From Planctomycetota bacterium (GTDB lineage Bacteria > Planctomycetota > UBA8108 > SXIK01), in NCBI GenBank assembly GCA_016209535.1, contig JACQVW010000404.1, forward strand, positions 1-61,894: DNA of 61,894 nucleotides. Direction: 5' to 3'. This document shows positions 7,126-50,409 of the stretch, piece by piece. A model generated the notes under the pieces. That model made no database searches. It was not told the DNA's origin and worked only from the letters and a program-made list of their open reading frames with translations. Numbering within the stretch: the stretch's first letter is position 1; every line of letters starts with the position of its first letter. Made by a program: the position numbers and the translations under genes.

Positions 7126-7161
7126 GGCTTGGACTCCTGAGCTCTGACTTCTGACTTCTGG

Positions 7162-10100
7162 CTAGGCTTCCCCCACGGGCAGGTCGCCTTCGGGTTTCAG
7201 CGTCCGCCGGGCGAGGAGGCGATAGAGGGCCGGCATGACGGCGAGCGTCAGCACCGTCGCCGCGAGCACGCCTCCCAGGATCGTCCGCGCCAGGGCCGCG
7301 TTCGCGCCGCCCTCCCTGCCGCCGAAGAAGGCCATGGGGACGAGGGCGAGGACGGTGGTCAGCGACGTCATGAGGATCGGCCGGAGCCGGATGCTCGCCG
7401 CCTCTACGATGGCCTCCTCGAGCGGCGATCCCTCGGCGCGCCGGAGGTTGGCGAAGTCCACGAGGATGATCCCGTACTCGACCACGAGCCCGACCATGAG
7501 GATCATCCCCATGAAGGCCTGGATGTTCAGGGTCGTGCCGGTCGTCCAGAGCGTCCAGCCGACACCCACGAGGCCCAGGGGCACGGCGAGGAGGATCACG
7601 AGGGGCTCGCCGAAGGAGCGGAAGAGGACCACCAGGATCAAGTAGACGATCACGGCCGCGAGCGCGAAGCCGAACCCGAAGCTTCCGAAGGACCGCCGGA
7701 AGCTCTCGAGCTCCCCGGCCTGGAAGACCCGGAACCCCTCCGGGATCACCTTCTCCCCGGCCACCTCCGCGGACCGCGTACGCTCGATCACCCGATCCAC
7801 CCCGCGCGAGACCGACCCGACGTCGTGCCCTCTCGCGACGTTGACGAAGATGTCCACCATGCGCGTGATGTTGAGGTGGGTGATCTCCGCGGGAGCCGTC
7901 GTCAGCTCGAAGGTGGCGAGATCCTTGAGCGGGACCGGCTGGCGCGTGGCGGCCGACGTTATGAGCAGGTCTTCGAGGGTCTCGAAGCTCCGGATTGCGG
8001 CCTCGCGGTACTGGGCGCCCAGGAAGTAGTGGTTCCCGTTGCGCTCATCGATCCAGAAGGCAGGCTTGAAGTTGATGCTCGAGCTCGTGGCGGTGACGAT
8101 GTTCTTGACGATCTCCTCCTGGGTGAGCCCGTAGTAGGCCGCCTTCTCGCGGTCGACTTCGATCGAGACCTGGGGGTAGTCGACCTTCTGCTGGATGCGC
8201 ACGTCCGCCGCGCCCGGGACCTTGGCGATCTCATTCCGGAGGTGCTTGGCTATCTCGGCGGCCCTCGGGTACCCCTTCGTCCCCTCGACGCGGACGTCGA
8301 TCGGGGAGGGGAGCCCGAAATTGAGGGCGGTCGTGAGCATGCCTGCCGTGTCGAAGGCGAACTCGACGCCGGGGAACTTCTCGGGAAGCACTTCCCGGAG
8401 TCGCTCGACGTGCTCGAGCGAGGAGCGCGTGCGGTCCTCCTTGAGCTGGACGAGGACGAAGGCGTCCATGGGCCCCGAGTTCCAGGTGTACGCCGCCGGC
8501 CAGTCGAGGAGGACGCCGAGGTTGGAGATGATCGTCCGGGCGTCGCTGTCCTCGGGGATCTGGAGGCGACCGGGCTCCGATCCGGAGCTCGTCCCCGCCG
8601 CCTCGGCGGCAAGAGCGACCCCGCGGCGCGAGCTCCGGAGCTCCTCGGCGATCGTCCTCTCGACCTCCTGGACGATCTCCTCGGTGACCTCGATGCGCGT
8701 GCCCGAAGGGGCCCGCACGAAGATGGTGAGCTGCCCTTGGTCGAGCCGGGGGAAGAGCTCCCACCCGAGCCGGCTGAAGGGGAGCGCCGTCACGGCCAGG
8801 AGCGAGGCCGCCGCCCCCGTGGTGACGAGCGGATGGGCGACGGTCCAGCGCACGAGGGCGCCGTAGGCCCGGTACATCGGCCCGACGCCCGCGCCGCGCG
8901 CCGGCACCGCGCCGTTCGCTTCGGGTCGGGCGACGGGCGCGAGGAACCGGGCCGAGAAGGCGGGGATGACGAGCATCGCCAGGAGGTACGAGCTCAGCAT
9001 CCCGAAGATGACGGCCAGGGCGAGGGGGGCGAAGAGGAACTTGGCCACCCCCGAGAGGAAGACGACGGGGAAGAAGACCGCCACGAAGGTCAAGGTCGAG
9101 ACGAGCACCGGGGTGGCCACCTCGCGTGCTCCGTCCCAGGCGGCGACCCGAGGGGCTTTCCCCTGGTGCAGGTGCCGCAGGATGTTCTCCATGAGCACGA
9201 TGGCCTGGTCGACCATGACGCCCACGGCGAGCGCGATGCCTCCCAGCGTCATCGAGTTCACGGACTGACCGCTGAACCTGAGCCCGATGAAGGTCCCCAG
9301 CACGGCGAGGGGGAGCGCCAGGAGGACGGCGACGGACGGCAGGAAGGCCCTCAGGAAGAGGACGATCACCAGGGCGGCGAGCGCCGCGCCGATGACGGCG
9401 GAAAGCTCGAGCTCGCCGATGGCCTTGCGGATCGTCACCGACTGGTCAAAGGCCACATCCAGCTCGACGTCGCGGGGCTTCCCCTGCGCGTCCACGAGGC
9501 GGGCCTTGATCTCGCCGATGGCATCCTTGACGCCGCGCACGATGGCGAGGCTGTTGGCGCCGGGCTGCCGGTAGACCGGGATGTAGACCTGGCGCCTGCC
9601 GTTGACCCGGACGACGTTCGTCTGGATCTGGTGCGTGTCCTCCACCGTGCCCACGTCGCGCATGTAGACCGGGCGCCCCTCGTGGAACAAGATGGGCACG
9701 TCGTTCAGCTCCTCGACGCGGCGCACCATGCCGTTCGCGACGAGCTGGTAGTCGATGGGCCCCAGCTTGGCGTTGCCCGTGGGGATGATCGTGTTCCACT
9801 TCCCGAGCGCCTCGACGACGTCCATGGGGTCCATGTTCCGCGACTGGAGGCGGTCGCGATCCACGTAGGCGAGCACGCGCCGCAGCACGCCGCCGTAGAC
9901 CGCCGGGGCGATGACGCCGGAGATGGACTGCAGGCGGTTGCGGAGGTCGAAGTACGCGATGTCGTAGAGCTCCTTCTCGCCGAGGGTGGCGCTCGAGACG
10001 GTCAGGAGACAGAGCGGCGTCATCGCCGTCGGGTCGAACGGCATGACCATGGGGGGGATCGTCCCCGGGGGGAGGTAGAACATGTCGCTCATTGCGTACG

Positions 10101-10440
10101 AGGTCACCTGGCTCATGGCCGTGTCCATGCTGATGTCCTCGTGGAAGAAGTCCTTGACCACGCAGACGCCCAGCATGGCCTTCGCCTCCTGGTGCTCGAT
10201 CCCCACGGACTGCCCCGTCCAGCGCTCGAGCCGGCTCATGATGTCCCGCTCCATGACCTCCGCCGGCATGCCGGGATAGAAGGTCACGATCTGCACCGCC
10301 GGCGTCTTGAAGATCGGGAGGAGGTCCGCTGGCAGGAGGAAGAGGGACGTGACTCCGAGGACGACCACCAGGATCGCGGCGACGACCACCGCGTAGGGGT
10401 TCCGGAGGGCGAGGCGGATGATCGCTTCCAGAGGCCTCAC
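7162..10440 (-). CDS. efflux RND transporter permease (AcrB/AcrD/AcrF superfamily)
   Basis: 1092 aa with 12-TM architecture, two large periplasmic loops and typical N-terminal and TM4 motifs. GTG start. Confidence 0.92.
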   Translation of the reverse strand: MRPLEAIIRLALRNPYAVVVAAILVVVLGVTSLFLLPADLLPIFKTPAVQIVTFYPGMPAEVMERDIMSRLERWTGQSVGIEHQEAKAMLGVCVVKDFFHEDISMDTAMSQVTSYAMSDMFYLPPGTIPPMVMPFDPTAMTPLCLLTVSSATLGEKELYDIAYFDLRNRLQSISGVIAPAVYGGVLRRVLAYVDRDRLQSRNMDPMDVVEALGKWNTIIPTGNAKLGPIDYQLVANGMVRRVEELNDVPILFHEGRPVYMRDVGTVEDTHQIQTNVVRVNGRRQVYIPVYRQPGANSLAIVRGVKDAIGEIKARLVDAQGKPRDVELDVAFDQSVTIRKAIGELELSAVIGAALAALVIVLFLRAFLPSVAVLLALPLAVLGTFIGLRFSGQSVNSMTLGGIALAVGVMVDQAIVLMENILRHLHQGKAPRVAAWDGAREVATPVLVSTLTFVAVFFPVVFLSGVAKFLFAPLALAVIFGMLSSYLLAMLVIPAFSARFLAPVARPEANGAVPARGAGVGPMYRAYGALVRWTVAHPLVTTGAAASLLAVTALPFSRLGWELFPRLDQGQLTIFVRAPSGTRIEVTEEIVQEVERTIAEELRSSRRGVALAAEAAGTSSGSEPGRLQIPEDSDARTIISNLGVLLDWPAAYTWNSGPMDAFVLVQLKEDRTRSSLEHVERLREVLPEKFPGVEFAFDTAGMLTTALNFGLPSPIDVRVEGTKGYPRAAEIAKHLRNEIAKVPGAADVRIQQKVDYPQVSIEVDREKAAYYGLTQEEIVKNIVTATSSSINFKPAFWIDERNGNHYFLGAQYREAAIRSFETLEDLLITSAATRQPVPLKDLATFELTTAPAEITHLNITRMVDIFVNVARGHDVGSVSRGVDRVIERTRSAEVAGEKVIPEGFRVFQAGELESFRRSFGSFGFGFALAAVIVYLILVVLFRSFGEPLVILLAVPLGLVGVGWTLWTTGTTLNIQAFMGMILMVGLVVEYGIILVDFANLRRAEGSPLEEAIVEAASIRLRPILMTSLTTVLALVPMAFFGGREGGANAALARTILGGVLAATVLTLAVMPALYRLLARRTLKPEGDLPVGEA

Positions 10441-10444
10441 TTCA

Positions 10445-11233
10445 TCACCTCAGCCCCTGGAATGTCTCGAGGAGACGCCGCAGCACGCTCGGCTCCGTTC
10501 CGCCGGCCGCCACGAACAGGACGCCGCGGACGGTCGCCATGAGGACCCGACAGTCGCGCACATCCTCCTCGATCAAGCCTTCCGGGGCTGCGGCGATCGC
10601 CTCCATGACGCTCTCGGGCGGCTTCAGGGGCCCGAGGATGACCGTCACGTCCCGGCCGCCGATGCGGTACGTGACGTAGCCCACGGGACCACCCAGGAAG
10701 GTGCACCGGCGCGCCCCCACGAGCTCGGCCGGACAGGCCTCGGTCTCGGCGACCGAGCTCCCGTCGGGCACGATGACGTCGAAGCCCAGCTCGCCCGCGT
10801 AGAAGCCCCGGACGAGAGCGGCCTCCGGGCCGCGCACCTGGATCGGGCTCTTCCCGGCCAGGTACTTCTCGTGGTGCTCGACGGCCGAGCGTGCGGCGGC
10901 GGATGGGCCGGCTCGGTTCAGCGCCAGGGAGAGCAGCAGGCAGGCCAGAAGCAGGAGCGCGGCGGCGTTCGCTCCCCACAGCCACCAGGTCCTCCGGGGC
11001 CCGTGAACGGCCCGGACGCGCGCCTCGAGCTCCTGCCAGGGGAAGCCTTCGAGAGGGCCCGCGCTCTTCCAGGCCGCGCAAGCGACGGCCTCCTCGAGCC
11101 GCCGTTCCCGGGCCCACAGGTCGCGACACCCCGGGCAGGCCTCGAGGTGCAGGTTCACCTCCTCGGCGCCGCGCGGGTCGAGCTCGCTGTCGTGGTAGAG
11201 GAAGAAGAGCCGCCGGGCTTCCTCGCATCTCAT
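10445..11233 (-). CDS. membrane-spanning anti-sigma factor (zf-HC2 N-terminus)
   Basis: HLEACPGC zinc-finger motif, one TM helix and a periplasmic domain. Overlaps the sigma gene stop. Confidence 0.7.
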   Translation of the reverse strand: MRCEEARRLFFLYHDSELDPRGAEEVNLHLEACPGCRDLWARERRLEEAVACAAWKSAGPLEGFPWQELEARVRAVHGPRRTWWLWGANAAALLLLACLLLSLALNRAGPSAAARSAVEHHEKYLAGKSPIQVRGPEAALVRGFYAGELGFDVIVPDGSSVAETEACPAELVGARRCTFLGGPVGYVTYRIGGRDVTVILGPLKPPESVMEAIAAAPEGLIEEDVRDCRVLMATVRGVLFVAAGGTEPSVLRRLLETFQGLR

Positions 11234-11799
11234 GGCCTGGGCCTCCTTTCCGGGCCTTGCCCCTCGCCGAGCCGGCGCGAGGAGATGTGCACGCGAAGGC
11301 GCTTCCGGGCCCGCGCGAGGTGGCTCATGGCGGTCCCCTCGGGCATCCCCAGGGCCTCGGCGATCTCACGGTAGGAGAGGTCCCCCACGCACTTCAGGAG
11401 GAGGACGAGGCGCTCCGCCGCGGCGAGCGCGCGGATCGCCTCCGCGAGGTCCTCGTCCAGGGTGGCGAGGACCGACTCCGGCTCGTGGAAGAAGCCCTCG
11501 TAGGCCGACTCCCAATGGAGGAGCGTGTCCGGAGCCTCGAGCTCCGCGGGCAGGGGGACCTCCAGCTCCTCGCGCAGCAGGCGGTTCCGGTTGCGGACCG
11601 TGTTGACCAGGTACTTGAGGACCCAGGCCCTGAAGGAGGCGCCTTCCCGGTAGCGGGCGAAGTCGCGCCACGCCTTCAGGATCGCGTCCTGCAGGGCGTC
11701 GTCCGCGTCCGCCTTCCTCGAGAGCAGGCTGCGGCTGACTGCGAGGAGCCGCTCGCGATAAGGGGCCAGGAGCGTGAGGAAGCGTTCCGGATCGGACAA
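11230..11799 (-). CDS. ECF-type RNA polymerase sigma-70 factor
   Basis: 189 aa. Region 2 (DALQDAILKAW) and region 4 (LSYREIAEALGMPEGTAMSHLARARKRL). TTG start with AGGAG upstream. Confidence 0.85.
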   Translation of the reverse strand: MSDPERFLTLLAPYRERLLAVSRSLLSRKADADDALQDAILKAWRDFARYREGASFRAWVLKYLVNTVRNRNRLLREELEVPLPAELEAPDTLLHWESAYEGFFHEPESVLATLDEDLAEAIRALAAAERLVLLLKCVGDLSYREIAEALGMPEGTAMSHLARARKRLRVHISSRRLGEGQGPERRPRP

Positions 11800-11849
11800 G
11801 GCGCTGGGTCTCCTGGCCCTTCAATGTGCCGGGGAGGCCGATTCCTTGC

Positions 11850-11873
11850 AAAAAAAAACGGGGACACTCCCGG
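11850..11873 (-). terminator. possible weak intrinsic terminator downstream of the rhodanese gene (short GC hairpin followed by U9)
   Basis: A9 tract at 11850-11858 on the plus strand (U9 on the minus-strand RNA) preceded by GGGA-GUG-UCCC. The stem is only 4 bp. Confidence 0.25.
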
Positions 11874-11986
11874 AATCTGCGGAACGCCGTGGCTCGGCAG
11901 GGCTGGGCCGATCCGGAGCCTGCCGGGGGTGGCCGTCGACCGCGGGTCGCACCGCAGGCCCGTCGCAGGGACCGGAGGCCTGCCGG

Positions 11987-12493
11987 CTATCGCCGGCCGG
12001 ACCCCTCCGGCTTCCGCGGGGACCCCTTTCCCTTGGGAGATGTCGCGGGTTGCCTCGGAATGTCCTGCACGGGGTAGCCCGCACGGACCCACCCGGCGAT
12101 CCCGTCGGGGTACTCGATCACGTTCGAGTACCCGAGGCTTCTTAGCCGGTCCGACAGCTTCCGCCGCAGAGGGCACCGAGTATCGGTGCAGTAGACCACG
12201 ACGAGGGCACCCTTCTCATCGACCGCCGCGGCCACCTCCCCCGATGTCGGCTCGGCGGCGATGAGCTTGGCGCCCCGGATCACCTGGTCGGCCTTGCCCC
12301 GCGCGTCGAGGAGGACGAGCGGGACCCTCGATCGGAGGAGGGCCATGAGGGCGGCGCCGTTCAGCTCGGCGGTCGGCTCCTTCTTCTTTCCGGCCTTGGT
12401 GTGGCTCCCCTCTTCCTCGGGCCGAGCCACCGTGATGCCGAGGACGAGGACGAAGAGGAGCGCGGTGGCACAATACGAAGCGATCGGTTTCAT
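11987..12493 (-). CDS. rhodanese-like sulfurtransferase domain protein, secreted or anchored
   Basis: 168 aa. Signal-like N-terminus. Active-site loop VVVYCTDTRCP. AAGGAGA precedes ATG 12493. Confidence 0.8.
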   Translation of the reverse strand: MKPIASYCATALLFVLVLGITVARPEEEGSHTKAGKKKEPTAELNGAALMALLRSRVPLVLLDARGKADQVIRGAKLIAAEPTSGEVAAAVDEKGALVVVYCTDTRCPLRRKLSDRLRSLGYSNVIEYPDGIAGWVRAGYPVQDIPRQPATSPKGKGSPRKPEGSGRR

Positions 12494-12547
12494 GGATGGT
12501 CTCCTTTCTTTCGACTTGTTCCAACGACAGAGCTGAGCCTGCCCACG

Positions 12548-14095
12548 TCACCGCCGCCACGCGAACCAAGCGTGGAGGAGCTTCCTTGCCGGCGCGGTCA
12601 GCCGGGACCGGTTGTAGGCGTCGGCCGCCTTCTTCAGGACCTCCGCCTGGGTGGGGTACGGGTGGATGGTCCTCGAGAGACGCCTCAAGCCGCGGCCCGA
12701 GACCATGAGGGTCGTGATCTCGGAGATCATCTCCCCGGCGTGCCGCGCGACGAGGGTCGCTCCCAGCACCCTGTCCGTCCCGCGCTTGAGGTGGACCTTG
12801 AGGAACCCGAAGTCCTCCCCGTCGAGCACGGCGCGGTCCACCTCCGCCAGCGGGACGGTGAGCGTCTCGACGGGGATGCCGCGGGCCTCGGCGTCCTTCG
12901 CGTAAAGCCCCACGTGCGCGATCTCCGGGTCCGTGTAGGTGCACCAGGGAATGGTCAAGGCGCTCGCGCGGGCGCTCCGGAAGAAGAGAGCGTTCTGGAT
13001 CGCGATCCGGGCCAGCGCGTCGGCCATGTGCGTGAACCGGTACGGGGAGCAGACGTCGCCGGCGGCGTAGATCCTCCGGTTGGTGGTCCGGAGGAAGTCG
13101 TCGACCTTGACGCCCGAGCGCCGGTCGCAGGCAACGCCGGCCGCCTCGAGGTCGAGGCCCTCCACGTTGGGGGCGCGCCCGACGCCCACCAGGATCTCGT
13201 CCACGGGGATCTCCAGGGGCTTCCCCTCCCGGGAGAGGACGAGCCGCTTGGCGCTGCCGTTCTTGACCTCGAGGATGTCGCTCCCGCAGAGGAGGCGCAC
13301 GCCGTCGCGCTCGAGAGCCGATTCGATCACCCGCGCCGCGTCCCGGTCCTCGCGGGTGAGGATCTGGAGGTCCTTCTCGATCAAGCATACCTCGGACCCG
13401 AACCGAGCGAAGCTTTGCGCCAGCTCGCAGCCGATGGGGCCGCCCCCGATGACCGCGAGGCGCGGGGGCAAGGCCCGGAGCGAGAACACGGTCTCGTTCG
13501 TCAGGTAGCCCGCCGCGGCGAGCCCCGGTATCGGAGGCGCCGCGGCGCGGGCCCCCGTGGCGACCACGGCCCGCGAGAACCGGAGCCGCTTCCCGCCGAC
13601 CTCGACCTCGTCCCGGCCGGCGAAGCGCGCGTCTCCAAAGAAGACGTCGACTCCGAGCCCCCGGAAGCGCTGGGCGGAGTCGTTCCGGCTGATGCGCGCC
13701 CTCAGGCCGCGCATGCGGTCCAGCACCGCGGCGAAGTCCACCCGCACGCCTCCCGGGACCACGACGCCGAAGGCGCCCGCGTCCCGCGTCTCCGCGTAGG
13801 CCCTCGCGCAGCGGATCAGCGCCTTCGACGGCACGCAGCCGTAGTTCAGGCAGTCGCCGCCGAGGAGGTGCCTCTCTACCAGCGCCACCTTCGCCCCGAG
13901 GCCCGCCGCCCCGGCGGCAGCGACGAGGCCCGCGGTCCCGGCACCGATCACGACCAGGTTGTAGCGGCCGCTCGGCTCGGGGTTCACCCATTCCGGAGGA
14001 TGGACATTCGATTGCAGGGTCCGATCGTGATCGTCCATCGGCCGGCCGGCCTGGAGCCCATCCGGCGGGCTCAAGCTCTCCAGGGGTGGCTTCAT
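12548..14095 (-). CDS. FAD-dependent pyridine nucleotide-disulfide oxidoreductase (mercuric reductase / dihydrolipoamide dehydrogenase-like)
   Basis: Internal ATG 14095 of the 1086-aa track ORF. GAGTAG dinucleotide fold, redox-active GGDCLNYGCVPSK motif and C-terminal dimerisation domain. ATGA overlap with the upstream gene. Confidence 0.85.
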   Translation of the reverse strand: MKPPLESLSPPDGLQAGRPMDDHDRTLQSNVHPPEWVNPEPSGRYNLVVIGAGTAGLVAAAGAAGLGAKVALVERHLLGGDCLNYGCVPSKALIRCARAYAETRDAGAFGVVVPGGVRVDFAAVLDRMRGLRARISRNDSAQRFRGLGVDVFFGDARFAGRDEVEVGGKRLRFSRAVVATGARAAAPPIPGLAAAGYLTNETVFSLRALPPRLAVIGGGPIGCELAQSFARFGSEVCLIEKDLQILTREDRDAARVIESALERDGVRLLCGSDILEVKNGSAKRLVLSREGKPLEIPVDEILVGVGRAPNVEGLDLEAAGVACDRRSGVKVDDFLRTTNRRIYAAGDVCSPYRFTHMADALARIAIQNALFFRSARASALTIPWCTYTDPEIAHVGLYAKDAEARGIPVETLTVPLAEVDRAVLDGEDFGFLKVHLKRGTDRVLGATLVARHAGEMISEITTLMVSGRGLRRLSRTIHPYPTQAEVLKKAADAYNRSRLTAPARKLLHAWFAWRR

Positions 14096-15699
14096 GGTTC
14101 GCTCCCCTTTCCGTTGAGGGACCACTCGTAGTCCAGCCACTCGATCCTCGGCGCCTTCCCGGCCGCGAGCGCCTCCCGGAGCTCGGGGACATACCGAGCG
14201 GCGAACTCGAGCACCGAGCCTGCCCCCTGCTCGAAGTCGCCGCCGTACCAGTCGTAGAGCCGGGTGAGCCGCACGGTGCCGTGCTCCAGGTCGAGCTCGA
14301 GCCAGCGCGCAGGAGCATGCACGCGGCGCGCCTGGTCCTCGAGCTGTCCCTCCAGCCGCTTCCCGGTGAAGGCCTCGCTTCTCAACGGCGGGCAGCCTTT
14401 CGCTGCACAGACGAGCGCGAAATGGACCCGAGGCTCCCGGAACCGGGAGCGGATCTGCTCGTGCTCGATCTCCTCGAGGCTCCAGACGTGCGGCCCGACG
14501 CGCCAGCGCCGGTCCTCCCACCGCCTCGCGGCGGGTATGTCCTTGATCGAGCGTAGCGGGTAGCGCTCCAGGACCAGCCGGAGCGTGAAGGCGTTGTACG
14601 CGTTCAAGAGGAGCGCGAGCTTCTCGTCGCGCCCGAGCCCGTCGAAGGGTGCTACGGCGAGCGTCTCGATGTACCGCTCCAGCATGTCTCCGTCGTCCTT
14701 GAGCCCCCGGTAGTCCACCCGGCCTTCGCCGTCGACGTGCCGCCGGAGGAGGCCGTCGAGGAGCGCGTGGTCGAATGCGCGCCCCTCGCGCTGGTCCTCG
14801 TAAGCCTCCACCATCGTGACCCTGGGCGGGCCGAGGGCGCGCTGCAGCACGTCGCGCCCCAGGTAGGCGCAGGCGTTGGCCGCGACGACGAGTCCGGCGA
14901 GGGAGGCGAGCAGCACCGCGCGGCGGAGCGATCCGCGGGCCGGGACGGCCTCGCGAGCTCCCGGGGCGCCGCACCCGCGCGAGATCCCGGCCTCGATCCC
15001 CGCGTCGCGGACCGCCTTGCGGGCGAGACGGGTCACGTAGGCGGTCACGGCCAGCGTGGCCACGAGCCCGACGGCCAGGAGTGCCCACCGGCCCGCTGCC
15101 CCGGCTGGCCGTGTGCCGCTCGCCGCCTCGAGCCCCGCTCTGCCTGCGTACCCCAGGTACACGTAGAGGAAGGTCCCCGGCAGCATCGTCAGCCAGCTCG
15201 TCGCCAGGTACGGCCAGAAACGAATGAGTGTGAGGCCGAAGAGGTAGTTGCTCAGGCTGAACGGTATGACCGGCGACAGCCGGAGGAGCGCGAGGATGAC
15301 CCAGCCCCGCGCCCCGATCGCCGCGTCGACCGCGCCGAACGTGGGGCTCTGGCCAGCCTTCCGCCTCACGGCGTCCCTCGCGAGGTAGCGAGCGAGGAGA
15401 AACGCCAGACCGGCCGCCAGCGTCGAGGCGAGAGACACCATCGCGGTCCCCAAGGCGAGGCCGAAGAGCGCTCCGGCGGCGATGGTGAGGGCCGAGCCCG
15501 GGACCAGCAGCACGGCGGAGAGCACGTAGAGGGCCGCGAACGCAGCCGGCCCCCACACGCCGAGCCCCTCGATCCGGCCGAGGAGCGCCTGGAGGACGCG
15601 GTCGACTGGGAGCAGCCGGGCGATCGCGATCAGCCCGCCAGCGATGACCGCCGCCGAGACCCACTGGACCGCCATCGTGGAGCGCTCGTTCAGGGTCAT
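14092..15699 (-). CDS. fusion of a TVP38/TMEM64 (DedA-like) membrane domain with a DUF547 domain
   Basis: Internal ATG 15699 of the 821-aa track ORF. SNARE-associated-type TM region, then DUF547-like LLNAYNAFTL...HFALVCAAKGCPPL. ATGA overlap with arsS. Confidence 0.8.
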   Translation of the reverse strand: MTLNERSTMAVQWVSAAVIAGGLIAIARLLPVDRVLQALLGRIEGLGVWGPAAFAALYVLSAVLLVPGSALTIAAGALFGLALGTAMVSLASTLAAGLAFLLARYLARDAVRRKAGQSPTFGAVDAAIGARGWVILALLRLSPVIPFSLSNYLFGLTLIRFWPYLATSWLTMLPGTFLYVYLGYAGRAGLEAASGTRPAGAAGRWALLAVGLVATLAVTAYVTRLARKAVRDAGIEAGISRGCGAPGAREAVPARGSLRRAVLLASLAGLVVAANACAYLGRDVLQRALGPPRVTMVEAYEDQREGRAFDHALLDGLLRRHVDGEGRVDYRGLKDDGDMLERYIETLAVAPFDGLGRDEKLALLLNAYNAFTLRLVLERYPLRSIKDIPAARRWEDRRWRVGPHVWSLEEIEHEQIRSRFREPRVHFALVCAAKGCPPLRSEAFTGKRLEGQLEDQARRVHAPARWLELDLEHGTVRLTRLYDWYGGDFEQGAGSVLEFAARYVPELREALAAGKAPRIEWLDYEWSLNGKGSEP

Positions 15700-16685
15700 G
15701 CCAGCGCTCCGCCGCAGGAGGACCCCTGGCCGGCCGTGCAGCCAAAGCAGTGGGAGCCCGTCGCGATCCTCCGGGCTGCGAGCTCCCCTGGGCGGAAGTC
15801 GCGGACATGACCTCTCACGCGAGTCGAGGTGGGCAGGCCGAGGGCGTAGTTGAAGTCGCAGTCGTACAGCGTGCCGTCCCAGCCCACGTTCACCTGGCGG
15901 CGGCACATGAGGCCGTCGATGGTCGCGGGATTGAAGGCGTTCCGGAGAACCTCCATGTACTGCTCGGCTTTCCCTTGCCGTGCGAGGTCGAGGAGGAAGC
16001 GCCCGACCGGCATGTTGGCGATCGCGACGAGCCGCGTGAAGCGAATGCCGTAGCGGGCGGCCAGCTCGCGGCGGTAAGCCGCCTCGAGCGCCTCCTGAGG
16101 AGGGGGAAGGTGCGGGCCGAGGGGGTTGTAGACCAGGTCCAGGGGCAGGTCCGGCTGGACCCCGTAGCCCAGCCCGTTCAGGATGACGATGGTCGCGATG
16201 CTGTCGTCGAAGACGCCCTTGCCGCGCTGGCCGTCGACGTTCTTCTCGAGGTAGCAGGGCAGCGAGGCGACCAGGTGGACCTTGAGCTCGCGGAAGAGCT
16301 CGGGCAGGTCTTCGTAGCCCGGCTCGAGGAGGATCGTGAGGTTCGTGCGGACCATGACCTCCAAGCCCTGGGCCGCGGCCGCCGCGATGAACGCACGGAA
16401 GCGCGGGTGCATCTCCGGCGCGCCGCCCGTCAAGTCGAGCGTCCGGGCGCCCGCCTCCCGCGCCGCCGCGAGGACGAGCCGCATCGTGGGCCAGTCCATC
16501 TCCTCGGCGCGGCCCGGTGAGGACTCGACATGGCAGTGCCGGCAGGCGAGGTTGCACCTCAAGCCGATGTTCGCCTGAACGGTGTCGATGGATAGCCCGT
16601 GGAGCGGACCGCCGTCCGCTTCCGCCACGCGGCGGTCGAAGTCATTCAGCGCGGCGGACCGCATCTCTCGTGCCAGATAGGTCAT
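15696..16685 (-). CDS. arsS: radical SAM/Cys-rich protein, ArsS-type (arsenosugar biosynthesis family)
   Basis: 329 aa. CNLACRHCH (CxxxCxxC) radical SAM site. C-terminal Cys-rich GSHCFGCTAGQGSSCGG tail (Cys form, not Sec). Confidence 0.8.
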   Translation of the reverse strand: MTYLAREMRSAALNDFDRRVAEADGGPLHGLSIDTVQANIGLRCNLACRHCHVESSPGRAEEMDWPTMRLVLAAAREAGARTLDLTGGAPEMHPRFRAFIAAAAAQGLEVMVRTNLTILLEPGYEDLPELFRELKVHLVASLPCYLEKNVDGQRGKGVFDDSIATIVILNGLGYGVQPDLPLDLVYNPLGPHLPPPQEALEAAYRRELAARYGIRFTRLVAIANMPVGRFLLDLARQGKAEQYMEVLRNAFNPATIDGLMCRRQVNVGWDGTLYDCDFNYALGLPTSTRVRGHVRDFRPGELAARRIATGSHCFGCTAGQGSSCGGALA

Positions 16686-16694
16686 GTTTCCCTT

Positions 16695-17828
16695 TCATGC
16701 CAAGGGGCGAAGGAGCGAAAAGAGCCCGCCGCCGAGCAGCGCCGCGACCGGCAGCGTGGTCACCCACGCCGCCAGGATTTGGGCGATCACCTTTCCATCG
16801 GCGGAACGTCGGACGAGCCCGATCCCGAAGATCGACCCGCAGGCCACGTGCGTCGTCGAGACGGGGAGCCCCAGCCGCGATGCGCCCAGGACGAACGCCG
16901 CGGTGACCAGGTTCGCGGTCAGCCCCTGGCCGGAGTTGAGCGCCGTGATGCGCTTTCCCATGGTGCGGGCCACCTTGCGGGAGCCCAGGACTCCCCCGAC
17001 CGCCATGGCGAGCGCGATGAGCCCAAGGTGGAGCCACGAGAGCCACCTCCCGGCGGCGATCATGAGCGCCGCGATCTTCGGCGTGTCGTTGACGGCCCGG
17101 GCGAAGCAAACCACTCCCGCGCTCAGGAAGTGGACCCGGTCCACCATCGCCTGGGCGCTGAGCCCGAGGACCCGGCCCAGGTAACGCTCGCGGCATACCG
17201 CCTCGGGACCGACGGTGAGCGCGGGCACGGCCCTGGCGGGCGCGGGAAGTCGAGCGAAGGGCGCGAGGGCTGCCGCCGGGTTCGCCGGCTGGGGCGACAG
17301 ATCCCCGACGCAGACGCAGGTCTCGCGCGTGATGCCAAGGCCAGCCCGCGCAGCCCGCAGGAGCGGGTAGCAGAGCCCCGCGCCCGCGATGGCCGCGAGC
17401 GGGCTCAGGAGGAGGGGCTGCAGGAAGCGGCCTTGGAGCACGCCCCATCGCATGCGCTCCGGATCGGCAGCGAACGCCGCCCCGAGGAGCGCGCCGAGGA
17501 GAGCGTGCGTCGTCGAGGTCGGCATCCCCAGGACGGTCGCGAGGAGGATTGTGACTGCCGCGGCGCCTGCCACACTGATCCGGATCGGCCACGTGCCCAT
17601 GAGCTCACCCGACAGGATCCCCTCCCCGCTGAAGGTCGCTGCCAGGCGCCTGGCCAGCAGGACAGCGGCGCAGCTCCCGGCCAGTGTGGCGAGGGTCGAC
17701 CACGAGAGCGCCGCCCGGAACCCGGTCGTGCCGCTGCCGTAGAGCGTTGCGACCCCCTTGAAGTTGTCATTGGCCCCGTTCGCATAGGCGAGCCACAGGA
17801 CCGTGACAAGGAGGACCCAGGCCGTCAT
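16695..17828 (-). CDS. PiT-family inorganic phosphate (possibly arsenate) transporter
   Basis: GANDNFKG signature. About 10 TM helices. ATG 17828 preceded by GAAGGAGGA; the track ORF extends upstream artefactually. Confidence 0.85.
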   Translation of the reverse strand: MTAWVLLVTVLWLAYANGANDNFKGVATLYGSGTTGFRAALSWSTLATLAGSCAAVLLARRLAATFSGEGILSGELMGTWPIRISVAGAAAVTILLATVLGMPTSTTHALLGALLGAAFAADPERMRWGVLQGRFLQPLLLSPLAAIAGAGLCYPLLRAARAGLGITRETCVCVGDLSPQPANPAAALAPFARLPAPARAVPALTVGPEAVCRERYLGRVLGLSAQAMVDRVHFLSAGVVCFARAVNDTPKIAALMIAAGRWLSWLHLGLIALAMAVGGVLGSRKVARTMGKRITALNSGQGLTANLVTAAFVLGASRLGLPVSTTHVACGSIFGIGLVRRSADGKVIAQILAAWVTTLPVAALLGGGLFSLLRPLA

Positions 17829-17856
17829 GCGTCCTCCTTCTCGGATCGCGGGCGCA

Positions 17857-18978
17857 TCAGCAGCACCCCGAGCCGCACTGGCCGGTCGCATCCTGAGGCC
17901 CAGGCAGCGGCCCGACCGGCAGCACCTCGCCGGCATAGGGCCCCGCTGGGTTCGTCAAGATGTCGTGGGTCTTGCGGCACACGGGAGCTCGGCGGCCTCG
18001 GACGAAGACGTGGCCGTCGTCGTCGCGCACCTCCTTCCAGGGGCCGCGATAGATCACCGCCTGGCCATCGTCGATGCAGGGCCCCTCCTTCCCCTTGTAG
18101 GCCCTCACGGTGAGCGAACGAAAATCGACCCCTTCAACCACCTTCCACGGCCTCTCGCTCCGCTCGAGGATCTCGATTCCATGGAACCCGGCCTCCTCGA
18201 ACATCTCGAGGAGGGCCTCCTCCCGGAAGGCACCCGCGATGCAGCCGCTCCAGAGCTCCGGGTCCTTCCGGATCGCGGGCTCGGGCTCCCTGTCGCACAC
18301 GATGTCCGAGATCACCGCGCGCCCGCCGCGGCGCAGCACGCGGTGGATCTCCTGGAAGAGGTGCAGCCTGTCGCGCGGCGCCACCAGGTTGAGCACGCAA
18401 TTGGAGACGACCACGTCGATGGTCTCATCGGCGATCAACGGCTCCTCCCTCCGCAGCCGGTTGCACTCGGCCTCGAGGGCGTGGAGCCCGCTCGATGAGG
18501 AGACCGGGTTCGCGTCGAGCCACAGGTCCACTCGCTCCAGGTCGAGCGCCAGGTCCTGGATCCGTGCCTTCACGAACCGGGTGTTGGCGTGGCCAAGCTT
18601 CCGGGCCATCTCGGCCTGGTATTTCCGCGCCACGGCCAGCATCTCGTCGTTGAAGTCGGCGCCGGTGACGGATCCCTTCGGTCCGACTTTCTGGGCCAGG
18701 ATGTAGCAGACTTTGCCCGCGCCGCTCCCGAGGTCCAGCACTCGTTCGCCCTCGCCGACGTGCCGCGACGGGTCGCCGCAGCCGTAGTCCTTCTCGAGGA
18801 TCTCGCGGGGCAGCTTTTCGAGACAGGCGGGGTCGTAGGACGTGGGGCAGCAGAGGCCCGCCTCGCGGGCCCTGGCGCCCCGTCCGTAGCGCTCGAGGAC
18901 CGCCGCCTCGACGCTCCAGTCGAAGTCATCGACCTTTCCCGTGAGGTCCGATCCTCTCCGCGCGGCAATTTTCGCCAT
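17857..18978 (-). CDS. arsM: arsenite S-adenosylmethionine methyltransferase ArsM-type
   Basis: 373 aa. CC pair, YGCGDP, VLDLGSGAG SAM motif, VVSNCVLNL and CIAGA motifs typical of ArsM. AGGAGA precedes the ATG. Confidence 0.8.
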   Translation of the reverse strand: MAKIAARRGSDLTGKVDDFDWSVEAAVLERYGRGARAREAGLCCPTSYDPACLEKLPREILEKDYGCGDPSRHVGEGERVLDLGSGAGKVCYILAQKVGPKGSVTGADFNDEMLAVARKYQAEMARKLGHANTRFVKARIQDLALDLERVDLWLDANPVSSSSGLHALEAECNRLRREEPLIADETIDVVVSNCVLNLVAPRDRLHLFQEIHRVLRRGGRAVISDIVCDREPEPAIRKDPELWSGCIAGAFREEALLEMFEEAGFHGIEILERSERPWKVVEGVDFRSLTVRAYKGKEGPCIDDGQAVIYRGPWKEVRDDDGHVFVRGRRAPVCRKTHDILTNPAGPYAGEVLPVGPLPGPQDATGQCGSGCC

Positions 18979-18996
18979 GGTTTCTCCTGTAAAGAC

Positions 18997-19023
18997 AACG
19001 AAAACGTCTCGCCACCTGGTTCC
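18997..19023 (-). promoter_or_regulatory. candidate ECF-type promoter GGAAC-N18-CGTT upstream of arsM
   Basis: Minus-strand GGGAAC (19023-19019), 18-nt spacer, CGTT (19000-18997), ending 18 nt before the arsM ATG. Same motif class occurs at three other sites. Confidence 0.3.
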
Positions 19024-19116
19024 CTGCTGCCTGTTGGTCGGTCCAGCCGCTCCGCCCTTACATCGTTGCCCCTCGCCTCGCCCGTCGCAGCGGCGGGGTA
19101 AGCCAGGAGCGCTCCG

Positions 19117-19374
19117 TCACGCGTCCCTTTTCTTCAGGGACGCCTGGATCCGTTCTCGGGCCTCCGCCGAGAGGCTCGGGCCGCCAGGGAGTCGCGCGGA
19201 GCCGCGAGAGAAGCGCCTGCAGACGAGCGCGTTCAGCAGGATCACCTGCCGGCGGTACGCCCGACAGGCCCCGCACAGGAGGACATGGAGGCGGACCGCC
19301 AGCCTCCGGTCGAGGGGCAGGTCGCGGTCCAGGCCTTCGGAGACCAGGCGCGTCACGTCCTTGCACGAGAGCAT
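19117..19374 (-). CDS. small zf-HC2 anti-sigma factor
   Basis: 85 aa from internal ATG 19374. HVLLCGACRAYRRQ motif. Lies immediately downstream of the ECF sigma gene. Confidence 0.6.
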   Translation of the reverse strand: MLSCKDVTRLVSEGLDRDLPLDRRLAVRLHVLLCGACRAYRRQVILLNALVCRRFSRGSARLPGGPSLSAEARERIQASLKKRDA

Positions 19375-19378
19375 CGGG

Positions 19379-19987
19379 TTACTCCCCTTCGGGGCGCTGG
19401 AACCAGCGCGCCTCGAGGCAGCGTCGCAGCCGCGCCCGGGCACGATGGAGCATGACCCCAAGATTAGTCGCGGTGACGCCCAGGACCTTACACGTCTCTT
19501 GGGGCTCCAGCTCCTCCAGGACCCGGAGGGAGAACGCCGCGGCAAGCCGCGGAGGCAAGCGGGAGAAGCACCCCTGGAACACGTCCCAGAACTCGCTCTG
19601 CTCGAGCAGCGCGCCTGCGTCGGGCACCCACGGACCGGGCTTCACCCTCCACCACCCGTTGGGCTGGAAGAGGCCGTCGGCCTCGGGGTCCTCCGTTTCG
19701 ATGTCCACCACGGGCTGTTCGCGGGCCGCCCTGCGGAAGCAATCGACGATCTTGCGCCGGAGGATGCTGACGAGCCAGGTGAGCTCGGACGAGCGCCCCT
19801 GGAACTCCGACCGGGCCCGGAACGCGGCGAGGAATGTCTCCTGCACGGCGTCCTCGGCGCTTGCCGGATCCCGCAGCCGCAAATACGCGTAGCGAAAGAG
19901 CTCATCCCCGTACCGATCCACCCAGTCCTCGGGCGCCGAGAGCCCTCTCTCACCGGGGGTGGGCCGATCCTCGTGCACGGGCGTCAT
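19379..19987 (-). CDS. ECF-type RNA polymerase sigma-70 factor
   Basis: 202 aa. Region 2 (EDAVQETFLAAF) and region 4 (ETCKVLGVTATNLGVMLHRARARLR). ATGA overlap with the kinase stop. Confidence 0.85.
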   Translation of the reverse strand: MTPVHEDRPTPGERGLSAPEDWVDRYGDELFRYAYLRLRDPASAEDAVQETFLAAFRARSEFQGRSSELTWLVSILRRKIVDCFRRAAREQPVVDIETEDPEADGLFQPNGWWRVKPGPWVPDAGALLEQSEFWDVFQGCFSRLPPRLAAAFSLRVLEELEPQETCKVLGVTATNLGVMLHRARARLRRCLEARWFQRPEGE

Positions 19988-21588
19988 GACCTCCGGATCG
20001 GCTCAAAGGCGGTCTCGGCCTGGCGGGAAGCCCTGTTTTCCGATGCCCGGGTCGGCTCGGCCACGCTCGACTCGTTCCTGCGCAGCCTCTCGAAGTCCTT
20101 CCACCAGGCTTGGGCCAGGTCCTCGGACCAGGCCGAGGCATCCTCGCACGCTTCCAGCGCGTGGATCAGGTCCTGCGCGCTCCGAGGACGCCTCGCAGGC
20201 TCCTTCTCGAGGCAGGAGAGGACGAGCCTCTCGAGATCCGCCGGCACGGGAAAGCTCCCGCGAGCCGAGGGAGGGACAGGCGGCGTCTGCACGTGGTGGA
20301 TGCAGACCTCAACGAAGGTCTTTCCCTCGAACACCTGCCTCCCCGCGAGGAGGTGGTAGGCCAGTGCTCCGAGGGAGTAAATGTCGCTCCTGGGGTCCAG
20401 GGCGTCCGGGGTCTGGATCGCCTCGGGCGATAGGTAGTGGATCGTCCCGAGGATGGCTTTCGGGACGCTCGCCGTCGTCTGGGAGAGGTTCCCGATGTCC
20501 TTCACCAGGCCGAAGTCCACGACCTTGACCACATCGTGCAGGCCGCCCCGCTCGCAGAGGATCACGTTGGCGCCCTTGATATCGCGGTGGATGAGCCCGA
20601 TCCCGTGCGCCTCGGAGAGCGACCCGCACACCTGCTTCAAGATGTGGATGACGCGGCCCGCAGGCTGGGGCCCGTCCTGTCGCACGAGGTCCTCGAGCGT
20701 GATCCCCGGCAGGTGCTCCATGGCGTAGTAGAAGACCCCGTCGGGCGTGCGGCCGTAGTCGTAGATCGAGACGGTGTTGGGGTGCGTGAGCCGGCTCGTG
20801 AGCTGGACTTCCCGCTCGAAGCGGGCGATGCTCCGTTCCCCCGCCAGATCCGGCCGGAGGAGCTTGACGGCGGTCGGGCGCCGCAGCATGGCGTGGCGGG
20901 CGCGGTAGACCTCGCCCATGCCGCCCGCGCCGATCTTCTCCTCCAGGGTGTACTGGCCGAGGCGCCGCGCCTCCGTCACCTCGCAGCGGAGCTCGTAGAG
21001 GAGCTTCGATGCGAAGGTCGAGAGCACGACCGCGACGACGTACCCGAGGCACTGCGACAGATCCAGGGGCTCGGCCAGGGCCGCGAGGACGACGCCCGGG
21101 ACCGAAGCCGCCGCGCCGATCGAGAGCGTCTCGTAAGCCCGGCTCGGTACCAGGAGGGCGCGGGCCACCAAGATGCTGACCGCCGCGAGCAGCGCCTGGT
21201 GGTTTGTGCTCCCGGTGCCCGCGCTGATGCCCGGGAGCGCGGCGAAAGCGCACGCGAAGAGGGTGCCGCAGGCGTCGAGCCCGCGCAGGCGCGCATAGGA
21301 CGAGCTCCTCCAGGAGGTGAGCCACCCCATGGCGGCGAGGACCAGGGATGCGGCGAGCGGGGGCAGGGGCGAGGCGCCGGAAGGATCGATCCACCAGAGC
21401 CACCCTGTCCTCGAGCTCGACGGCCCCTGAAGCCTGTCGAGCAGGTAAAGGGAAACCGGGACCGCGAGGAGAACCCTGGTGAAGAGCGCGAGGCGTCTCC
21501 GGAGGATCTCTCTGCCTACTTCCGAGTCGCTCGGGGACCAGAGGCAAGGCACCGTGGAGCCAGTCTCGAGGTCGGAAGGGTGCGACAT
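19984..21588 (-). CDS. membrane-associated Ser/Thr protein kinase (N-terminal multi-TM region, C-terminal Hanks kinase)
   Basis: Internal ATG 21588. GAGGMGEVY glycine loop, VKLL lysine, HRDIKGAN catalytic loop, DFG, SPE. Confidence 0.85.
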   Translation of the reverse strand: MSHPSDLETGSTVPCLWSPSDSEVGREILRRRLALFTRVLLAVPVSLYLLDRLQGPSSSRTGWLWWIDPSGASPLPPLAASLVLAAMGWLTSWRSSSYARLRGLDACGTLFACAFAALPGISAGTGSTNHQALLAAVSILVARALLVPSRAYETLSIGAAASVPGVVLAALAEPLDLSQCLGYVVAVVLSTFASKLLYELRCEVTEARRLGQYTLEEKIGAGGMGEVYRARHAMLRRPTAVKLLRPDLAGERSIARFEREVQLTSRLTHPNTVSIYDYGRTPDGVFYYAMEHLPGITLEDLVRQDGPQPAGRVIHILKQVCGSLSEAHGIGLIHRDIKGANVILCERGGLHDVVKVVDFGLVKDIGNLSQTTASVPKAILGTIHYLSPEAIQTPDALDPRSDIYSLGALAYHLLAGRQVFEGKTFVEVCIHHVQTPPVPPSARGSFPVPADLERLVLSCLEKEPARRPRSAQDLIHALEACEDASAWSEDLAQAWWKDFERLRRNESSVAEPTRASENRASRQAETAFEPIRRS

Positions 21589-26792: not shown

Positions 26793-27392
26793 ATGCCCAG
26801 CTCGAGAGAAGAATCCCACGAGTTCGAGGAGGCGATGCTGCCGCATCTCGACGCCGTCTACCGGTTCGCCGTCTACCTCACGGGCAACGAGCCCGACGCC
26901 GAGGACCTCGTTCAGGAGACTTACCACCACGCCATGCGCCGCTTCGACCGCTTCCAGCCCGGCACGAACGCCAGGGCCTGGCTCTTTACCATAGCCAGGA
27001 ACTGCCGCATCGACCGTGCACGGCGGGAGTCCCGGGAGTCCCACTTTGCGGACATCGCGGACCTCGAGGAGACGCTCGACCTCGAGGACCGCAAGGCGAG
27101 CCCCGAGGCGCGCTTGGAGGACTGGGCGAGCCTGTCCATCGACGGCGAGGACGTCTTCTTCGACCTCTTCGGCGACGAGGTGAACCGGTTCCTCGCCGAG
27201 CTGCCCTCCGGTTTCCGGGCCGCCCTCCTCCTCTGCGACGTGGAGGGGCTCAGCTACCGCGAGATCGGCGAGGCGCTCGGCTGCCCCGTGGGCACCGTGC
27301 GCTCGCGGATCGCGAGGGCACGAGAGCACCTGAGGGTCAAGCTCTACGAGTATGCCAAGGGGCTCGGTTTCGTGAAGCACGGGGCGGGTTGA
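26793..27392 (+). CDS. ECF-type RNA polymerase sigma-70 factor
   Basis: 199 aa from ATG 26793 (GGGAGA upstream). Region 2 (EDLVQETYHHAM) and region 4 (LSYREIGEALGCPVGTVRSRIARAREHL). Confidence 0.85.
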   Translation: MPSSREESHEFEEAMLPHLDAVYRFAVYLTGNEPDAEDLVQETYHHAMRRFDRFQPGTNARAWLFTIARNCRIDRARRESRESHFADIADLEETLDLEDRKASPEARLEDWASLSIDGEDVFFDLFGDEVNRFLAELPSGFRAALLLCDVEGLSYREIGEALGCPVGTVRSRIARAREHLRVKLYEYAKGLGFVKHGAG

Positions 27393-39345: not shown

Positions 39346-39359
39346 CGCGAGCCTCGGCG

Positions 39360-50402: not shown

Positions 50403-50409
50403 CTGCCAC

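Follow-up and report, generated by a model that had tools for sequence, protein, structure and literature searches.

The DNA analysed here, called the window below, comprises positions 1 to 61,894 of contig JACQVW010000404.1 (assembly GCA_016209535.1) from a Planctomycetota bacterium; the best hits likewise suggest a probable origin in Planctomycetota, of a Phycisphaerae-like kind. The subject of this work is a compact set of six genes within it, which includes a gene assigned to ArsS, an organoarsenical-synthesis enzyme of the radical S-adenosylmethionine (SAM) type. According to the open reading frames (ORFs) read from the window, the six genes lie intact on the minus strand within 11987-18978; they are given here in their order of transcription, with lengths in amino acids (aa).

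17857-18978 (-), methyltransferase (MT), 373 aa, predicted As(III) SAM methyltransferase of the ArsM family, BgArsM-like subfamily
16695-17828 (-), PiT/PHO4-family anion permease of the phosphate/arsenate type, 377 aa
15696-16685 (-), ArsS radical-SAM enzyme, 329 aa; 322 aa from a start at 16664
14092-15699 (-), fusion of a VTT domain with a DUF547 domain (VTT-DUF547), 535 aa
12548-14095 (-), flavin adenine dinucleotide (FAD) disulfide oxidoreductase of the class-I pyridine-nucleotide type (the FAD enzyme), 515 aa
11987-12493 (-), putative single-domain rhodanese, exported or membrane-anchored, 168 aa

We read this set, with a probability of about 0.6, as a pathway to an organoarsenical (DDMAA, the adenosylated product of dimethylarsenite, DMAs(III), or a compound of the arsenosugar type) joined to a conserved membrane module for thiol-redox chemistry or transport.

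Gene content of the six-gene unit

A preliminary description of this DNA had proposed a minus-strand layout of six genes with small gaps and two ATGA stop/start overlaps, and every part of it was recovered. The junctions measure, in the order above, 28, 9, -4, -4, and 54 nucleotides (nt), and the ATGA overlaps lie at 15696-15699 and at 14092-14095. The PiT start was placed at the ATG behind GAAGGAGG, the homologues being 376-378 aa long; the longest PiT ORF extends to 17936, which would overlap the MT gene. The start of the FAD enzyme at 14095 is preceded by a good ribosome-binding site, AAAGGGGAG, and its junction with VTT-DUF547, overlapping or of 6 nt, is kept in four related loci (L162-L165). 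The public gene call for the same contig begins the radical-SAM gene at the ATG at 16664 (322 aa), and an exact-protein look-up with the 329-aa form therefore matched nothing. The single strand, the short or overlapping junctions, and a gene order kept in other assemblies are those of an operon, and the six genes probably form one compact transcription unit. The same genes in the same order are also present in three further assemblies (L002, L162, and L163), and synteny with L002 breaks off exactly at both edges of the set; since the order recurs and the limits of synteny match the edges, the set is more than a chance grouping.

The radical-SAM protein scores 411.7 bits against the ArsS model TIGR04167 (cutoff 300; profile positions 5-303 of 303) and is composed of a Radical_SAM domain and PF12345 (DUF3641, 176.4 bits). 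Its CX3CX2C motif (C44/C48/C51) and another six cysteines do not vary among 17 homologues; C313, C316, and C324, all invariant in the same homologues, sit in HCFGCTAGQGSSCGG, and the C-terminus reads CFGCTAGQGSSCGG. By family membership the protein is assigned as a true ArsS. In vitro, ArsS converts DMAs(III) to DDMAA by a redox-neutral adenosylation (PMC13598754).

The MT has its best Protein Data Bank (PDB) match in CmArsM (4fr0/4kw7, E = 3e-35) and keeps the four catalytic or arsenic-binding cysteines of ArsM (Cys43/44, 67, 194, and 246) in YGCG, SNCV, and GC(I)AGA contexts that align to CmArsM; their spacing of 24/127/52 residues is identical to that of Cys30/54/181/233 in BgArsM from B. 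gladioli. ArsM proteins methylate As(III). Against curated models the top match was NF040538 (arsinothricin-type ArsM; 315.3 bits, cutoff 500), with PRK11873 (172.2 bits, cutoff 263) and AsSugarArsM (cyanobacterial arsenosugar ArsM; 122.3 bits, cutoff 400) also below their cutoffs. By fold and motifs the MT would thus be an ArsM in a subfamily that has no curated model. BgArsM-like MTs pair with ArsS in at least 16 loci and are the usual ArsS partner in Planctomycetota and Methylotetracoccus. L163 carries both a BgArsM-like MT beside PiT-ArsS and a classical ArsM, for which reason the ArsS-linked enzyme is taken as a dedicated paralogue. The ArsM/ArsS core proposed earlier thus holds as to a genuine ArsS and an MT of the ArsM type with its four cysteines, but the MT falls outside the cyanobacterial arsenosugar-ArsM clade.

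The permease matches PF01384 (PHO4) over its full length (193.6 bits, profile positions 1-350 of 350), and the PitA and CysP models match it weakly. PiT proteins transport phosphate and arsenate. Its place between arsM and arsS, noted in the preliminary description, was confirmed, and PiT recurs in about nine related loci, mostly as the immediate neighbour of ArsS (directly adjoining in L002, L085, L143, L162, and L163).

VTT-DUF547 contains PF09335 (VTT_dom, 92 bits) and PF04784 (DUF547, 79.8 bits). The hydrophobic segments of the VTT domain are 9-27, 48-66, 77-95, 121-139, and 200-218; an extra transmembrane helix (262-280) separates it from the DUF547 domain. Homologues are named 'YdjX (TVP38/TMEM64 family)' by JGI, and the VTT domain is putatively of the COG0398 type (DedA/TVP38); NCBIfam gave no match whatever for the fusion. 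In the DUF547 domain a conserved H-F-A-L-x-C-A-x-x-G-C-P motif is present, and the pair C431-x4-C436 is invariant in 30 homologues. The domain is probably periplasmic, since stand-alone DUF547 proteins of related loci carry signal peptides. The AlphaFold2 model of the fusion has a mean predicted local distance difference test score of 80, with roughly 82-97 per 10-residue block over DUF547; a Foldseek search of DUF547 against PDB found no solved relative (nothing below E = 0.88), and the fold therefore gives no hint of function. We know of no function described for DUF547, and the one further context found for it in the literature is in plants, where it is fused to class IV glutaredoxins.

The FAD enzyme combines Pyr_redox_2 (208.9 bits), Pyr_redox, and Pyr_redox_dim domains and passes NF004991, a generic 'FAD-containing oxidoreductase' model (810.4 bits, cutoff 620). 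It shows GGDCLNYGCVPSK and a redox-active pair C82-x4-C87; the motif HPxxWxNP is N-terminal, the His-Glu dyad lies in HPYPTQAE, and the C-terminal tail is basic/aromatic; the signatures of the subfamily are kept in 95, 75, and 73 of 101 homologues (GGDCLNxGCVPSK in 95, HPxxWxNP in 75). The preliminary description had called it mercuric-reductase-like with a CxxxxC site. The CX4C disulfide reductase stands, and the nearest PDB match is MerA (5x1y, 271 bits); identification as MerA was rejected, the score against TIGR02053 being 385.3 bits (cutoff 454.45) and the C-terminus (...LLHAWFAWRR) having no cysteine pair, nor was an NmerA/HMA domain present. Where VTT and the reductase are fused in other loci, the reductase domain begins about 20 residues past the VTT domain; a cytoplasmic site is expected for the reductase because it uses NAD(P)H.

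The rhodanese (PF00581, 24.9 bits, cutoff 22.2) has an N-terminal hydrophobic signal or anchor at residues 4-22. Its loop YC102TDTRC107P is a CX4C and corresponds neither to the classic CRxGx[R/T] nor to the Cdc25/Acr2 CX5R loop; the L002 orthologue, encoded directly after the FAD gene, has the same YCxxxxCP motif.

Linkage of the accessory genes to ArsS

Conservation next to ArsS was followed in both directions. The forward test covered 80 genome loci with ArsS homologues (47-66% identity, about five phyla) and their neighbours within 6 kb; the reverse test covered 80 metagenome loci picked solely by the FAD reductase (59-70% identity), each set being the best-scoring 80 of a longer list; a third set held five loci picked by VTT-DUF547. 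Neighbours were called from six-frame ORFs scored with phmmer. Metagenome contigs are often short, so that locus frequencies are lower bounds.

The commonest neighbours of ArsS were TIGR04282/DUF2064 (40 loci), the FAD/VTT/DUF547 group (25 loci by clustering), and the MT (24 loci), the frequency of the FAD/VTT group matching that of the MT. A strong homologue of the FAD enzyme (at least 365 bits) was present in 17 of the 80 loci, and three more had an adjoining, weaker reductase of the same superfamily. In 15 loci VTT adjoined the reductase or was fused to it; DUF547 was found in 7, PiT in 3, and the rhodanese once, in L002, just beyond the 6-kb range. TIGR04169 was present in 10/80. By record titles, the FAD/VTT-positive loci belong to Planctomycetota, Gamma- and Betaproteobacteria (Neptunomonas, Marinobacterium, Methylotetracoccus, and Noviherbaspirillum), Thermoanaerobaculia, and Myxococcota. 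Among them the genes run ArsS-VTT-FAD or divergently, with VTT and FAD as separate genes or as one fusion; because order and fusion state vary, selection is favoured over shared ancestry of a single island.

In the reverse test VTT accompanied the FAD gene in 55/80 loci and ArsS in 20/80, the distance between FAD and ArsS being at most about 2 kb in 18 of these 20 (3.7 and 7.9 kb in the remaining two). When at least 3 kb was available on both sides, ArsS was found in 9 of 22 FAD loci, and ArsS, an ArsM-like MT, or TIGR04282 in 13 of 22. Among the loci picked by VTT-DUF547, three of five had ArsS, four of five had the FAD gene overlapping or at most 6 nt downstream, and all five had DUF2064 of the TIGR04282 type. 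By our estimate, chance would place a single-copy gene within about 6 kb of another given gene in well under 1% of cases, and the linkage data argue against simple coincidence. As to the accessory genes that the preliminary description had attached to the ArsM/ArsS pair, conservation near arsS/arsM extends to VTT/DUF547 and the FAD enzyme, in both search directions and across phyla, and to PiT in the loci named above, but the rhodanese was kept in L002 only.

The relatives show larger clusters, of which the operon of the window is a compact version. In L002, L162, and L163 the core order is MT, PiT, ArsS, inserted genes, VTT-DUF547, FAD, in some cases the rhodanese, and a fusion of glycosyltransferase (GT) domains with DUF2064 (GT87-GT2-DUF2064). 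The genes inserted between ArsS and VTT-DUF547 encode thioredoxin (Trx)-like/MerT/HMA proteins, a SpoIIE phosphatase, and AhpC/TSA or DUF3179-redoxin proteins; a T4-deiodinase-like protein is also inserted in relatives, and the AhpC/TSA redoxin of L005 has a lipoprotein signal. ArsS runs straight into VTT-DUF547 in the window, and nearly so in L003 (55-nt gap). In L165 a nucleoside hydrolase of the ribonucleoside type lies two genes upstream of VTT-DUF547 and could remove adenine from DDMAA.

Arsenic genes accompany the module in other arrangements. A canonical arsR-arsC-arsM-acr3 operon (L163:16611-19462; ArsM 313 bits against PRK11873, cutoff 263; ACR3 448 bits, cutoff 283) lies immediately beside, and convergent with, the MT-PiT-ArsS...VTT-DUF547-FAD-GT cluster of L163, which thus carries two ArsM paralogues of different subfamilies. 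Radical-SAM-ArsM fusions of 841-1034 aa lie near VTT-FAD in L090 (1992-4514), L113 (15153-18143), and L126 (12896-15997); they join a SPASM-type radical-SAM domain to an ArsM domain, L113 adding an MbdU-like Cys-rich C-terminal domain, and represent a second, apparently undescribed combination of radical-SAM and ArsM.

Further neighbours were recorded in passing. PiT is also near the radical-SAM-ArsM fusion in L090. Directly upstream of VTT-DUF547 in L161 (7646-9912) lie a TrsS/Tes-like radical-SAM protein (472 aa, a relative of tetraether-lipid synthase) and a DVU_1556-like methyltransferase, with ArsS, DUF2064, and a BgArsM-like MT 3-5 kb away; the pair was considered as ArsL/ArsM2 and rejected in favour of the TrsS/Tes-like and DVU_1556-like assignments. 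Members of the fatty-acid-hydroxylase family occur near VTT-FAD in 5/80 FAD loci (e.g., L113:11434-12315), and L165:2519-3862, near VTT-FAD, is a fatty-acid hydroxylase fused to a rhodanese. Six FAD-picked loci share a conserved membrane protein, about 170 aa long and unmatched in Pfam, which in L157 (1434-1961) lies just upstream of VTT.

Control region and flanking genes

The following features flank the six genes; those encoding extracytoplasmic function (ECF)-type sigma factors and a resistance-nodulation-division (RND) pump are on the same strand.

19379-19987 (-), ECF-type sigma factor; Sigma70_r2 61.5 bits, Sigma70_r4_2 41.4 bits
19117-19374 (-), zf-HC2 anti-sigma factor, 85 aa; Pfam zf-HC2 30.4 bits
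18997-19023 (-), candidate ECF-type promoter GGAAC-N18-CGTT, ending 18 nt upstream of the MT ATG
11850-11858 (-), T9 run, a possible terminator U-tract at the end of the unit, 129 nt beyond the rhodanese stop
4394-11799 (-), ECF sigma factor, zf-HC2 anti-sigma factor, RND pump (AcrB-like, 1092 aa), membrane-fusion protein, and outer-membrane factor, directly downstream of the operon

The sigma gene at 19379-19987 overlaps the upstream Ser/Thr kinase gene on the same strand by 4 nt; the anti-sigma gene begins 5 nt past the sigma gene, and 138 nt separate its end from the MT start. The motif GGAACN{15,19}CGTT occurs seven times in the window (18997, 21666, 26626, 26720, 28402, 30810, and 30844) against 1.56 expected, and seven was reached in 0/100 shuffles. 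No fewer than three ECF sigma factors are encoded in the window (11230-11799, 19379-19987, and about 26830-27389), and ECF sigma/anti-sigma pairs also flank the related clusters L162 and L165; the sigma factor heading the L162 cluster finds its best match in the window (114 bits) in that of the downstream block. The upstream sigma/anti-sigma pair probably controls the operon. A promoter and terminator scan found no sigma-70 promoter, and its terminator-like matches lay solely inside genes. The T9 run is the only A/T homopolymer of at least 7 nt in the window; the hairpin before it is weak, was missed by the terminator scan, and folds no better than shuffled sequences. An Rfam scan of 11000-20500 gave a single chance-level match and no RNA element.

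Three genes farther upstream have counterparts in the relatives' clusters or belong to the same domain families.

38209-39414 (-), zf_CopZ-MerT-HMA fusion; MerT 46.6, HMA 36.3, zf_CopZ 54.5 bits
29558-30388 (+), AhpC/TSA redoxin, homologous to genes inserted in relatives
30486-31133 (-), HMA-domain protein

The zf_CopZ-MerT-HMA protein, 20 kb from the operon, has 38.7% identity to the Trx-like/MerT/HMA protein of L002 (10821-11987); its homologues lie inside the relatives' cluster, between ArsS and VTT-DUF547, where L163 has Trx-like and HMA genes, and from this placement it is possibly tied in function to the operon. A back-to-back pair of GGAAC-N-CGTT motifs, at 30810-30869, lies between the HMA gene and its neighbour. 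The G+C content is about 70% throughout the window, with a dip to 0.61 at 50001-52000 against about 0.70 elsewhere; no tRNA genes were found anywhere in the window.

Proposed role and comparison with known systems

Under the preferred reading, the six genes would act as one transcription unit through which a carbon-arsenic compound is made and handled at the membrane. The PiT permease would let in arsenate or a similar oxyanion, which enzymes encoded elsewhere would reduce; the ArsM-type MT would then methylate As(III), and ArsS would attach the 5'-deoxyadenosyl group of SAM to dimethylarsenite. VTT(DedA)-DUF547 and the cytoplasmic NAD(P)H disulfide reductase would constitute a conserved, often fused two-part module, which may supply or recycle thiol reducing power at the membrane and carry a thiol, an arsenical, or a lipid-linked intermediate across it. 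The chemistry of the reductase would be glutathione-reductase-like, physically coupled to a DedA-type transporter, and thiol-bound trivalent arsenic would be shielded from oxidation in an aerobic cell on its way from uptake to ArsM/ArsS. The periplasmic DUF547 domain and the exported rhodanese, each with a CX4C dithiol, would be likely outside partners or arsenic-binding sites; the same parts might alternatively flip a lipid-linked arsenosugar. The As(V)-to-As(III) handling, thio-arsenicals, or arsenolipid export suggested in the preliminary description are at best weakly supported.

The thiol theme is drawn from the CX4C of the FAD enzyme (with its His-Glu dyad), of DUF547, and of the rhodanese, and from the redoxin and Trx-like inserts of relatives; the link to arsenic is drawn from the ars operon abutting the L163 cluster and from the radical-SAM-ArsM fusions beside VTT-FAD in L090, L113, and L126. 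Together with the reciprocal linkage, these points make it rather likely in our view that the accessory module is a functional part of the ArsS pathway, while a specific role in thiol-redox maintenance is put forward tentatively, the odds being somewhat against it. Doubtful is a more far-reaching version, in which the DedA(VTT)/DUF547/FAD module is an obligatory, hitherto unrecognised arm of bacterial organoarsenical synthesis that keeps arsenic trivalent and thiol-bound and flips a lipid-linked arsenosugar outward (GT2 to DedA to GT87). If it were true, Planctomycetes and several proteobacteria would put arsenic-containing sugars into envelope lipids or glycans, and a first biochemical function would be at hand for DUF547 and for the DedA-reductase fusions.

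Several observations weigh against the preferred reading. The MT passes none of the curated ArsM cutoffs. The window contains no TIGR04282, TIGR04169, GT2, or GT87 gene and no nucleoside hydrolase, and an arsenosugar end product cannot be asserted from 62 kb without TIGR04282/GT2/GT87 genes; nor does the window contain arsR, arsC, or acr3. The two 80-locus sets are not random samples, and ArsS was missing within 10 kb in about half of the well-flanked FAD loci. In L161, VTT-DUF547 is near ArsS without a FAD gene, and the rhodanese is kept as the same gene in one other locus (L002). The VTT domain has no cysteines and therefore cannot itself relay disulfides. COG0398 DedA-reductase fusions are described as widespread (PMC10127716), and for this reason the module may have a more general role.

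The alternative that survives best, although we regard it as unlikely, is export of a lipid-linked product: VTT/DedA would flip a polyprenyl-phosphate- or phospholipid-linked arsenosugar, GT2 loading the sugar inside and GT87 (GT-C) transferring it outside, with DUF547 in the periplasm and the reductase as an auxiliary. GT87-GT2-DUF2064(-GT2) fusions directly after FAD or the rhodanese in L002, L163, and L165 (nearby in L162 and L164) speak for it, as do the L165 nucleoside hydrolase, which could strip adenine from DDMAA, and the lipid-modifying neighbours (fatty-acid hydroxylase in 5 FAD loci, the Tes-like radical-SAM protein in L161); DedA proteins are reported as flippases or scramblases of undecaprenyl-phosphate or phospholipid (PMC10127716; PMC10193950). 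The window, however, has no GT2, GT87, or DUF2064 gene, and the fusion of a disulfide reductase to VTT is left unexplained by such export.

Less probable again is that VTT-DUF547, the FAD enzyme, and the rhodanese serve general membrane or thiol homeostasis as an independent stress module, merely sharing a promoter or an island with arsM/arsS. Such a module would fit the flanking ECF sigma factors and RND pump, typical of stress regulons, the FAD loci without ArsS (about half of those well flanked), and the COG0398 DedA-reductase fusion, described as the commonest of its subfamily and tied to aerobic metabolism in general (PMC10127716). It fits poorly with an association that is reciprocal and spans at least four phyla with differing gene orders and fusion states, with ArsS-VTT junctions that overlap or leave a very short gap (window, L003, L022, L063, and L077), and with the second, unrelated radical-SAM-ArsM fusion showing the same association.

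Very improbable is a pathway for another thiophilic element (Se, Te, Sb, or Hg), alkylated by the ArsM- and ArsS-like enzymes and taken up and reduced by mer-like membrane and reductase parts. Selenoprotein variants in the ArsS family and in several neighbouring families (by NCBIfam names), MerT/HMA proteins inside relatives' clusters and in the window, a MerR gene in L164, and the MerA proteins as closest solved relatives of the reductase all point that way; against this, the reductase has neither the C-terminal cysteine pair nor the NmerA of MerA and retains the His-Glu dyad of disulfide reductases, L163 adjoins a canonical arsR-arsC-arsM-acr3 operon, PiT is an oxyanion carrier of the phosphate/arsenate type, and the known biochemistry of ArsS is limited to DMAs(III) (PMC13598754). 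An arsinothricin-type antibiotic cluster analogous to arsQML, raised by the best hidden Markov model match of the MT (NF040538, 315 bits), by its cysteine spacing identical to BgArsM, and by pitA next to arsQML in B. gladioli too, is rejected as scarcely credible, since ArsL is a radical-SAM enzyme with an RCCLKC tail and ArsQ is GntP-like, but the radical-SAM protein here is DUF3641/TIGR04167 with the C-terminus CFGCTAGQGSSCGG, the permease is PHO4/PiT, and the MT is under the 500-bit cutoff.

To our knowledge, experimental evidence on arsenosugar biosynthesis extends only to its first two steps, ArsM and ArsS. The gap that the linkage addresses is the supply and protection of oxygen-sensitive, toxic trivalent methylarsenicals, together with exit of the product, and the reciprocal linkage across phyla nominates the reductase subfamily, the DedA-type membrane protein, and DUF547 as missing parts. 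Such a reproducible genomic association makes two orphan families testable (DUF547 and the COG0398 DedA-reductase fusions), and cultivable carriers exist in Alienimonas chondri, Methylotetracoccus oryzae, Neptunomonas marina, and Marinobacterium arenosum. In agreement with the preliminary description, which held the accessory genes to be uncharacterised as pathway members, searches of the accessible literature that paired DUF547, TVP38, or mercuric reductase with arsenosugar or ArsS turned up no study connecting them.

Already known are the arsM-arsS pair, the arsenosugar neighbourhood TIGR04167/TIGR04169/TIGR04282, and the COG0398 DedA-reductase fusion. In Synechocystis sp. PCC 6803, as is probable here, an ArsM-type MT is co-transcribed with a TIGR04167/DUF3641 radical-SAM enzyme, with an expected chemistry of As(III) to DMAs(III) to DDMAA; in the window the MT is of another ArsM subfamily, a PiT gene stands between arsM and arsS, three translationally coupled genes are added downstream, and ECF sigma control is probable. 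The Synechocystis arsM is slr0303 and slr0305 is a TVP38 protein; slr0304 as arsS was not confirmed, but if it is the co-transcribed arsS, a VTT gene would directly follow arsS in this model organism too. The ArsS of the window belongs to the arsenosugar neighbourhood of NCBIfam (TIGR04167 ArsS, TIGR04169 peroxidase-like, TIGR04282 DUF2064 glycosyltransferase), which holds no pathway-specific name for the FAD, VTT, and DUF547 proteins. The arsQML operon of B. gladioli likewise unites an As(III)-dependent radical-SAM enzyme, a BgArsM-type MT, and a dedicated permease, with pitA nearby; it differs in having ArsL (RCCLKC tail) in place of ArsS and GntP-like ArsQ in place of PiT, and it lacks the VTT, FAD, and DUF547 genes.

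With the mer operon (MerP/MerT/MerA) the window shares the combination of extracytoplasmic thiol proteins with a membrane protein and, in the cytoplasm, an FAD/NAD(P)H reductase bearing CX4C, and MerT/HMA homologues lie inside related ArsS clusters; the reductase of the window differs in having no C-terminal cysteine pair or N-terminal HMA domain and in possessing a His-Glu dyad, and its membrane partner is DedA-type, not MerT. The accessory module resembles the COG0398 DedA (TVP38)-reductase fusions, in which the same two domains are adjacent or fused; they are the commonest fusion of the subfamily, and a 2023 survey left their function unexplained and does not mention a link to ArsS/ArsM (PMC10127716). 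In the window, by contrast, VTT is fused to DUF547, and the reductase is encoded by a separate, translationally coupled gene.

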